A stretch of 3,496 nucleotides of DNA from Escherichia coli (lineage in GTDB: Bacteria > Pseudomonadota > Gammaproteobacteria > Enterobacterales > Enterobacteriaceae). Location: the NCBI RefSeq assembly GCF_003334385.1, contig NZ_QOWN01000092.1; one strand, given 5' to 3'. Shown piece by piece: positions 1-3,000 of the stretch (the stretch's first letter is position 1; every line of letters starts with the position of its first letter). The position numbers are program-made.

Positions 1-3000
1 GGCGCACCTGGTGCAGTGGGGCCCGCAGGCCCACGGGGACCGGCTGGTGCAGCTGGTCCCAAAGGTGATGCAGGCCCGGCAGGGCCACGAGGTGAAAGGG
101 GACCTGCGGGGGCACAGGGTGTTCCGGGGCCGGTTGGTCCGGCAGGTCCTGCGGGTAAAACGGGGCCACGAGGTTTGCAGGGAGAAACAGGAAGACAGGG
201 CCCGACAGGTCCACAGGGCCCGACAGGTGAACCCGGACCACAGGGACCACAAGGGCCAACCGGAAGGCTGGTACCCGGGGAAATTTACAGCATCGGAACA
301 TACATTATTGCCGCACTAGCCCCGTATACAACCGACATCGGCAGAACCTATCAGCCAGGAGAAACTGTACAGGGTTCACGCCTTAAGCGATGCGCCATAA
401 TCAAAGATGCAAGCGGGAACTATATGAAAGCTAACACCGATGGCATTGACGGCAGACTATCCTCAGTTCCGGGGTCATGGATGGTGTGTAATGAAATTAC
501 GTCGACAAATGACAATGAAGGCATCGGGCTGTTCCAGCGCGCATACTGACAGACAGGAGATGACATGAATGTGGAAAAAAATAAGCAATCCGCAATGGGC
601 AGATAAAGATCACACTGCTGTGAATTGCATGGTGAAGTTTGAGCACATTGAGCAGGCGGTTCCTTTCACTGCAACAGCCAGCGATACCGAAGCATACGGG
701 CGGGATATTTATGCCGCTTGTCTGAGAGGAGAGGCCGGTGAAATTGCAGAATATGTACAGCCATCCATCAGCCCGGAAAAAGCCAGAGAACTCAAAACCG
801 CCGGGATCAACGCCTGGCGTAATGCGATGGAAGCGGCGAACTACACGTTTGAGCACAATGGGCGTAAATGGGACTACGGGAAGTCAACGCAGACGCGTCT
901 TGAGCCGTCGGTGGCTGCCGCGAAAGCAGGAATACTGCCGGAGGGTTTTTTCTGGACGGATGCGGAGAATAACGACGTCCCGATGACGGCAGAGGCGCTG
1001 ATGGCACTCAGTGAGGCGGCGGAGAAGGCGATGTTCACCAAAGGGATGGAAATTCACGTACAGCAGCGCAACATGAAGAAGGCACTGGAAGCGCTGAACA
1101 GTGCGGATGAGATTCTGGCGTATAAGGTGGGTCAGGAGTCGTAAATAAAAAAACGGGGGTGATGCCTCACCTCCTCTTTCGTCAATAGAGGATTACTGCA
1201 ATCGTTTTTTTATTGTGAAACAGATTCTGCAATAACCGCCAGGCATATTCAGTGATGCCTGTCACACGCTCCGGAACGCGGATGGCAGCGGCATGTCAGA
1301 AAACGATTAATATTATTAATACATCGAAAAAAAATCAGAATGTGGTGGTTATCACATTATTAAGCGTAAGGAACTGTGTCATAAGTGCGCGAGGGAAATA
1401 AGCGAAACGACAGCATGCGGTGTGGAGCGTGAATAATGGCGGGGATGACGGATATCACCGACTGTACAGTACGATAATTCCTAAAAAGTTTATATTCATT
1501 TTTGCGAATAATCCTGGAATAAGCTGACAGGAAGCAGCCAGTTATCAGATTTTCTTTAGTGTATCTGAAGTGCGTCTGAGAGGGTTGCTTTTTTTGTATA
1601 CAAAGAAATTACAGGATATCCATAATGAGTAAAAAATTCACAAAGACACTTCTATCATCTTCTCTGGGTGGGCTTCTGCTTGGGATCAGCTCAGGTGTTT
1701 TAGCTCAGGAGTTACCTCCTATCAAAGATTCTGGTTTGCCTTCTTATTCAGTGCTGAAAGAGGCAGATGCTAAGTCTGTTATACACGGTAGTACTTATCG
1801 TATTTACTATAACAAATCCTCTGGTTGGGGAACAATGCGATATGTTCTGGACGGAAATGATAAGACCCTTTTTAATTTCGATCAGGAGGGTAATATTATA
1901 GTATTGAGTAAAGATAACTCAATTGCATATACCGTTCATGAGCCTGTGCTAAAAGACTTCGCCCGTATGGCAGCAGGCCTCAGAACGTCTGGCACAGAAA
2001 ACGGTAAGCATAAGGTTGATGAGGAGGAGGTCCGCCGGATCTTCAATAAAGTTAATAACTTATCAAATACAATTATTAATCCTGATTTATTTAAAAGCTC
2101 GGATTTTATTTCCTCTGGATCTGCTCCAGAAAATGACCCTGTAGTTCCTGCCAGTGCAGAAGGTGTGTTTGCGTTTGCGACTGGACAAGGTGCCAAGGCG
2201 AATGGATATATAGCAACAGCAGTGGGCTCATGGGCTGCTGCGGACGGTAAACAAAGTACAGCTCTGGGAGGGGGAGCATATGCCTATGCAGATGCTTCAA
2301 CAGCCGCCGGAACAGCTGCTTATGTTGATGGTTCTGCTATTTATGGTACCGCTATAGGTAATCACGCAAAAGTGGATAAAAATGCAACTGAAGGTGTTGC
2401 ATTAGGAGCCAAAGCAATATCTGCACATAAAAACAGTGTGGCCTTAGGGGCAAACTCCCGAACCACTCGTGATAATGAAGTTTACATTGGTTATGAAGAG
2501 GCTTCTGGTAAAGCATATAAAACCCGCACCCTTGGAGGATTGACTGATGGAACTCGCCCATCCGATGCAGCAACTGTTCGTCAGGTTGATCGGGTAAAAG
2601 ACAGTGTTGAGCAACTGGCTCAGGATACGAATACCCGCCTTGTAGTCGAAGCGAAAAAGTCTCGTGAATATACAGACTCCAGAACGACAGTTGGTGTGAA
2701 CCCTGACGGAAAACTTACCCGTGCAGAAGGTGCGACTAAAACTATCGCCGTCAATGATGGTCTCGTTGCTCTGTCTGGCAGAACAGACCGTATTGATTAT
2801 GCAGTTGGTAGCGTTGACCGCCGGGTTACTAAAAATACACAGGCTATTCAGTCCAATACTCGCCAGTTGCAGGAGCATAATGCACGCCTGAACAGCCAGC
2901 AGCGTCAAATTCGTGAGAATCACGAAGAGATGAAGCGTGCAGCAGCACAGAGTGCAGCGCTGGCGGGGCTTTTCCAGCCGTACAGTGTGGGGAAATTCAA

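Follow-up and report, generated by a model that had tools for sequence, protein, structure and literature searches.

The window, that is the whole stretch of 3,496 nt that was analysed, is the right-hand end of the tail module of a lambdoid prophage and is 98.9% identical to E. coli JNEC-KY204 (NZ_AP045180, locus L001). In that genome J and lom are followed by the genes of a 496-aa protein annotated as 'prophage tail fiber N-terminal domain', of a 'DUF4376 domain-containing protein' and of a YadA-like adhesin, and then come more cargo and the chromosomal genes yecD/aspS. The following features were located around the gene under study:

16..549, + strand: 3' part of the side tail-fibre gene (ORF reading, PHROG tail-fibre matches)
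469..546, + strand: C-terminal signature of the fibre tip, PGSWMVC (469-489) plus the terminal GLFQRAY (526-546) (motif comparison)
555..559, + strand: Shine-Dalgarno sequence AGGAG, 9 nt ahead of the ATG at 569 (direct sequence reading)
569..1144, + strand: ORF of a very likely DUF4376 tail-fibre chaperone, 191 aa, two domains (sequence, homologues, AF2)
569..778, + strand: N-domain 'class A', aa 1-70, the variable and putatively fibre-tip-specific module (AF2 and identity comparisons)
575..581, + strand: A7 run in the overlapping ATGAATG double start (565-571) (allele comparison)
782..1111, + strand: DUF4376 domain, aa 72-181, the conserved, putative assembly module (Pfam PF14301, hhalign to V22 gp27, DNA identity)
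1155..1174, either strand: GC-rich hairpin with an A-run on one side and a T-rich tail on the other, terminator-like on both strands (sequence)

Collagen-like Gly-X-Y repeats occupy the 3' part of the fibre gene up to about nt 261; the remaining 95 aa (262-546) form a C-terminal knob for which no Pfam family was matched. The full-length fibre of the 98.9%-identical genome consists of phage_tail_N, Phage_fiber_2 and Collagen domains, and its last ~93 aa are without Pfam assignment. The fibre gene stops at 547-549, and after a gap of 19 nt the next ORF starts with the ATG at 569-571 and ends with the TAA at 1142-1144, as read directly from the sequence. Its 191-aa product has the N-terminus MWKKISNPQWADKDHTAVNCMVKF and the C-terminus EILAYKVGQES.

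A word-indexed search with this ORF returned 270 homologues at E<=1e-3, mostly E. coli proteins named 'DUF4376 domain-containing protein', and an exhaustive search returned 1220 representative homologue clusters at the same threshold. An AF2 model built with the family alignment reached a mean pLDDT of 97.4 and a pTM of 0.78. Because of these homologues and clusters and the confident model, 569..1144 is clearly a real coding gene. This agrees with an earlier note on this DNA, which had called the ORF well supported by a strong Shine-Dalgarno sequence, its length of 191 aa and its correct position.

The start of the gene is present in two forms. Alleles with an A6 run start at the ATG at 565 (MNVEKISNP...), and alleles with an A7 run, such as the one in the window, start at the ATG at 569 (MWKKISNP...); the ORF is open in both. 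Both start alleles are common: their clusters hold 857 and 236 members. The gene therefore stays active after a one-base slip in the homopolymer, by use of the alternative ATG.

The hairpin at 1155-1174 marks the end of the tail operon, and the 191-aa ORF is the last gene ahead of it. Past the operon, 480 nt behind the ORF, follows the first cargo gene (1625-3151, + strand); a weak promoter-like sequence is located at 1597-1626. The gene product, 508 aa long, is a trimeric autotransporter of the immunoglobulin-binding Eib type with a YadA anchor and matches EibD (PDB 2XQH) with an E value of 1.4e-84. At 3240-3496 (+ strand) a conserved hypothetical protein begins (MKVILATRNRYLEYGLQALLKEH...) and runs off the end of the window. 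It travels with the Eib gene and comprises 156 aa in JNEC-KY204 (WP_001539080.1). In JNEC-KY204 an S6-family (SPATE-type) autotransporter peptidase is situated behind the Eib cassette, just before yecD/aspS (18966-22973 of L001).

The block of fibre end, DUF4376 gene, Eib-like adhesin and 156-aa hypothetical protein was found in two settings. In JNEC-KY204 it follows J and lom in a lambda-like prophage; in the 62-kb phage PhiR12_3 (PV340552, L003) it has other neighbours, most of them without annotation. Hence the block is mobile between phage backbones.

Family and domain structure of the 191-aa protein

Pfam assigned a single domain to the protein, DUF4376 (PF14301), at residues 72-181 with an E value of 1.8e-17. 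The tail-fibre assembly family Caudo_TAP (PF02413) gave no Pfam match even at E<=10. No NCBIfam model matched the protein, no match to the gp38 families (T2/S16) was obtained with Pfam, PHROG or NCBIfam, and a sequence search of the PDB returned only chance matches (E >= 0.27). The best PHROG was phrog_1141 of the category 'tail' (E 7e-75). Separate PHROGs cover one end each, either the N-terminal ~75 or the C-terminal ~120 residues alone, which was an early sign of two modules.

A characterised relative is gp27 of Alteromonas phage V22. This protein comprises 195 aa with DUF4376 at 92-184 and is encoded directly behind the receptor-binding fibre gp26 (PMC7289586). A family profile made from 114 relatives of the window ORF aligned to residues 80-188 of V22 gp27 over 109 columns with an hhalign probability of 96.9% (E 2e-10). 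In a pairwise BLASTP comparison the ORF itself matched gp27 with an E value of 9e-5 and 25% identity in the shared domain. The same profile did not match lambda Tfa (7.9% probability) or Mu U (0.3%). A sibling carrying a Mu-type N-domain does give a partial Pfam match to Caudo_TAP ('half a Caudo_TAP + DUF4376'), unlike the window ORF.

Since the protein carries PF14301, is homologous to V22 gp27 and matches neither Tfa nor Mu U, it belongs to the DUF4376 chaperone family and not to Caudo_TAP. Consequently, the gene very likely encodes a tail-fibre assembly chaperone that is not of the lambda Tfa/Caudo_TAP type. The earlier note had found no resemblance to lambda Tfa and had suggested that the ORF might belong to a different chaperone family. 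The first observation was confirmed by the Pfam and hhalign results, and the suggestion is supported by the DUF4376 domain and the homology to V22 gp27. The profile search proposed there yielded DUF4376 and, across PHROG, NCBIfam and Pfam, no match to an unrelated family. DUF4376 is a known but little-studied family, to which the window ORF adds another member. Since hhalign was negative for both lambda Tfa and Mu U, we do not claim DUF4376 to be a diverged Tfa C-domain, in spite of the wording in PMC7882524.

The AF2 model predicts an N-domain of three beta strands (2-10, 17-24, 31-36) and a helix (42-52). The C-domain is predicted to comprise a helix (69-89), a hairpin (92-103), a second helix (105-119), a second hairpin (128-138) and a long helix (141-175). 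With its three-stranded N-terminal sheet and helical body with hairpins, the model has the same general layout as described for V22 gp27 and its homologue A5 gp9. A5 gp9 has been described as a helical body with a beta hairpin, to which three beta strands are added for pairing with the head of the fibre (PMC10579305). The similar size (195 versus 191 aa), the position directly behind the fibre gene and the homologous C-terminal DUF4376 are further common features.

Unlike in V22 gp27, the N-domain of the window protein is without detectable similarity to its counterpart and the fibre tip is unrelated (V22 gp26 ends ..SKITVNF). V22 and A5 are marine myo-/podoviruses, whereas the window derives from an enterobacterial lambdoid prophage with a collagen-like fibre. 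With lambda Tfa, Mu U (TfaMu) and Pam3 gp25 the protein shares the gene position and the combination of a variable, putatively tip-binding N-domain with a conserved helical C-domain. Neither domain, however, is homologous by sequence to lambda Tfa or Mu U, and DUF4376, with two beta hairpins, has roughly double the length of the Tfa C-domain.

Exchange of N-domains and their pairing with fibre tips

When the E. coli relatives were aligned, the C-terminal two-thirds proved to be conserved and at least two unrelated N-termini were found. Three types of N-domain are joined to the DUF4376 C-domain in related prophages, namely the window type, the N-domain of Mu U and residues 1-117 of lambda Tfa. 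The siblings with the Mu-type N-domain have DUF4376 domains that are 74-79% identical to that of the window ORF. One of them, P0089 (79% identical in this domain), matches residues 25-112 of PDB 5YVQ chain B with an E value of 9e-20. Compared with Mu U/U' the Mu-type hybrids yielded E values of 1e-19 to 4e-29, and the alignments stop at U/U' residues 110-121. The match to lambda Tfa residues 1-117 ranges from 1e-36 to 9e-50. In these hybrids with Tfa-type N-domains DUF4376 therefore occupies the exact place of the Tfa C-domain. In Tfa the N-domain binds the fibre and the C-domain is responsible for oligomerisation and assembly, as quoted in PMC9608196 and PMC7882524.

The reverse exchange was also observed. 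The window-type N-domain is joined to a Mu-U'-like Caudo_TAP C-domain in P0223, to Phage_tail_APC in P0262 and to short helical tails in gp045 of Pbunaviruses. Pbunavirus F8 illustrates the last case. Its gp045 (annotated as 'tail fiber component' or 'assembly protein') is shorter, with 142 aa, and by sequence has no DUF4376 domain in its C-terminal part. The N-terminal 60 residues are 47-52% identical to the window type in most of the matches listed. The gene directly follows the 964-aa fibre gp044, thus occupying the same position, and this fibre ends with the same signature (..PAGTWRCMGY..ATLFQRVT).

To relate N-domains to fibre tips, the DUF4376 gene and the end of the gene upstream were taken from 80 viral loci, which gave 62 unique pairs. 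The window-type N-domain occurs in 23 of them, always after a fibre ending in ..[LI]F[QRME]Rxx (LFQRxx); in two further window-type cases the upstream ORF was miscalled. The Mu-type N-domain is paired 23 times with Mu S-like tips (..YRP(L/V)Q..W..) and seven times with ..WEAxGY tips. The lambda-type N-domain occurs in four pairs, each with the tip ..NIAFNYIVRLA, which is the terminus of lambda Stf. Five loci form a class of others: the upstream ORF is miscalled in L035, L076 and L080, the gene is shortened in L040, and L079 represents a fourth type of N-domain and tip. No cross-pair of N-domain and tip type was found among the 62 unique pairs.

In 23 of 25 unique window-type loci the gene upstream ends with the two-part motif (G[TS]W..G, then [LF][FWVC][QLVRME]R.. 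at the extreme end). Ten diverse proteins with a window-type N-domain from the exhaustive homologue search were looked up one by one, and in eight of them the signature again closes the upstream gene (for example ..GTWRALG..ATLFVRIS and ..GTWRVMG..ITLCLRVS). Window-type N-domains behind GxW...LFQRxx fibres are thus found in E. coli prophages, Pseudomonas Pbunaviruses and diverse metagenomic phages. From the motif comparison we propose that the signature at 469..546 of the window is the docking element for the N-domain of the chaperone.

The DUF4376 gene is present in 11 of 11 loci that have a close knob homologue and at least 100 nt of downstream sequence, and behind the homologous fibre in 15 of 15 E. 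coli genomes among the matches listed. The conservation of the fibre-chaperone pair, which the earlier note had named as a check, was hence found in each of these loci and genomes. The position directly behind the fibre gene on the same strand holds in most of the 78 related loci that were analysed.

Two variants of the arrangement were noticed. In L025, L026, L031 and similar loci (~3521-3755) a gap of 230 nt lies between the ..WEAxGY fibre and the gene with Mu-type N-domain and DUF4376. This gap holds an ORF of ~77 codons that overlaps the chaperone start by 4 nt and is possibly an additional small gene. The viral contig L066 carries two pairs of fibre and DUF4376 chaperone in tandem (1845-2594 and 3745-4317), one with a lambda-Stf-type tip and a lambda-Tfa-type N-domain, the other with a ..GIFRRCY tip and a window-type N-domain.

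Between the tip clusters of E. coli the tip and the N-domain are each only ~30% identical, whereas the C-domain is 76-92% identical. At the DNA level the junction with differing prophages is situated at nt 775-806 of the window (aa 70-80), and from there similarity extends to about nt 1131 with 83-91% identity. On the other side, the collagen-repeat DNA at nt 1-97 is 92-95% identical to prophages with an unrelated knob and chaperone N-domain. From the conserved stretches at nt 1-97 and nt 775/806-1131 it follows that the variable unit consists of the knob together with the chaperone N-domain and is framed on both sides. Type pairing, identity matrices and the DNA junction each point to a tip-specific N-domain combined with a conserved C-domain. 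This two-module organisation is a Tfa-like way of working, not membership in Tfa.

Probable function of the protein in tail-fibre assembly

Position, the DUF4376 domain, the homology to V22 gp27, the natural swaps, the pairing with tips, the mosaic boundary and the AF2 layout together argue for a chaperone role. The product of the ORF is probably an intermolecular chaperone for tail-fibre assembly and consists of two exchangeable modules. Its mechanism is less certain than this role. Judging from co-occurrence, the N-domain (aa 1-70) would recognise and dock on the C-terminal knob of the nascent collagen-like fibre chains, probably through the conserved terminal strand ..GLFQRAY. DUF4376 (aa 72-181) would be the generic module that most likely self-associates and aligns the C-termini of three fibre chains in register. 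Folding of the trimer would then start at the distal end, as has been proposed for Tfa-type chaperones, with the knob first and the collagen helix after it; the chaperone may afterwards depart or remain as a loosely bound cap. We infer the binding of the N-domain to the LFQR tip, the trimerisation by DUF4376 and the need for the protein in making a functional fibre. No experiments on the window protein or on any E. coli member were found among the listed papers that mention DUF4376.

The characterised relatives suggest that the need for such a chaperone varies. In phage V22, gp27 is needed to obtain functional, cell-binding gp26 (PMC7289586), and the H-fibre of the Campylobacter prophage CJIE1 also needs a downstream DUF4376 gene (PMC7882524). 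Against a universal need, the A5 fibre is functional without gp9 (PMC10579305), and EPclA, a different collagen-like fibre of an O157 prophage with a PfC tip, trimerises alone in E. coli (PMC3368898). [quoted passage not shown]

We considered two alternatives to a pure chaperone role. The protein could be retained as a distal component of the fibre, as a cap or accessory adhesin that contributes to or gates receptor binding, similar to Mu Tfa or T2/S16 gp38. The earlier note had likewise named a second distal fibre component as an alternative. Mu Tfa indeed remains bound to its own fibre, and A5 gp9 binds its fibre more stably than V22 gp27 and is largely retained through purification, for which a role as 'transient cap' has been proposed (PMC10579305). 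The tight co-evolution of N-domain and tip would fit a stable interface, and the matching PHROG families are labelled 'tail fiber protein', although such labels are annotations and not tests. V22 gp27, however, separates from its fibre in size-exclusion chromatography and is absent from the final complex (PMC7289586), so that DUF4376 relatives vary in how tightly the fibre retains them (PMC10579305). In the virion atlas of Pbunavirus Pa193, in which only residues 1-350 of the fibre gp47 are resolved, the product encoded after gp47 is not among the modelled chains. Moreover, adhesins vary in their exposed part, whereas here the conserved half does not track the tip, and the variable half tracks the fibre tip and not a free distal surface as expected of a gp38-type adhesin. 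We therefore regard a retained component as rather unlikely, while it can coexist with the chaperone role and overlaps with it.

The location of the ORF at the boundary of the tail genes and the cargo region of the Eib-type adhesin raises the alternative that it is a lysogenic-conversion or cargo ('moron') gene of the adhesin cassette, unrelated to tail assembly. The occurrence of fibre tip, ORF and adhesin as one block in two different phage backbones would be in line with this idea. Yet translation of the ORF is closely coupled to that of the fibre gene, whereas the hairpin and 480 nt separate it from the adhesin. Homologues are situated behind fibre genes in virulent phages without Eib (Av-05, V22), in Pbunavirus F8 this place is taken by an N-domain homologue, and all relatives of the domain are fibre chaperones. 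An origin of the gene in the adhesin cargo is thus highly improbable.

Returning to the chaperone with two exchangeable modules, the results can be combined into a broader reading, which we put forward tentatively and with slightly more doubt than confidence. Fibre chaperones would be free combinations of two parts, a portable N-domain that reads the tip and the DUF4376 assembly module, with flanks that serve as recombination arms. If this is true, the window-type N-domain is a transferable module that reads a short motif at the C-terminus of the fibre (G-T/S-W...L-F-Q-R-x-x), and this motif is common to Pseudomonas myoviruses, to lambdoid, Stx-like and rV5-like phages of E. coli and to many uncultured phages. 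DUF4376, which is not detectably homologous to the Tfa C-domain, would have repeatedly replaced the C-domains of Tfa and Phage_tail_APC. The collagen repeats and the DUF4376 DNA flanking knob and N-domain would act as recombination arms for the exchange of host-range cassettes. For engineering, the map of the two modules predicts that such fibres are retargeted only if the knob and residues 1 to ~70 of the chaperone are transferred as a unit; the DUF4376 half may be left in place.

In thousands of E. coli genomes, STEC prophages among them, the family carries no annotation beyond 'DUF4376 domain-containing protein'. The assignment as fibre chaperone completes the tail module of these phages and places the actual right-hand border of the tail operon just ahead of the virulence cargo. 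No general concept is changed by this, since modular Tfa proteins and DUF4376 chaperones have both been described previously. The grid of domain combinations, the LFQR signature and the framing of the cassette go somewhat beyond the papers found to mention DUF4376 and are of use in fibre engineering, yet they follow the modular-Tfa picture.

As a minor observation, the window-type N-domain also occurs without a chaperone C-domain. On two short metagenome contigs (L105 474-1178, P0247; L106 68-808, P0259) it is fused to a helical region of ~170 aa with a weak DUF4145 match in place of the chaperone C-domain. The ORF upstream of P0247 is not an LFQR fibre, and the contig of P0259 is too short to tell. 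A PADLOC scan of these N-domain/DUF4145-like fusions returned nothing usable. Speculatively, the fusions may represent a different use of a domain that binds fibre tips, for example as a sensor.
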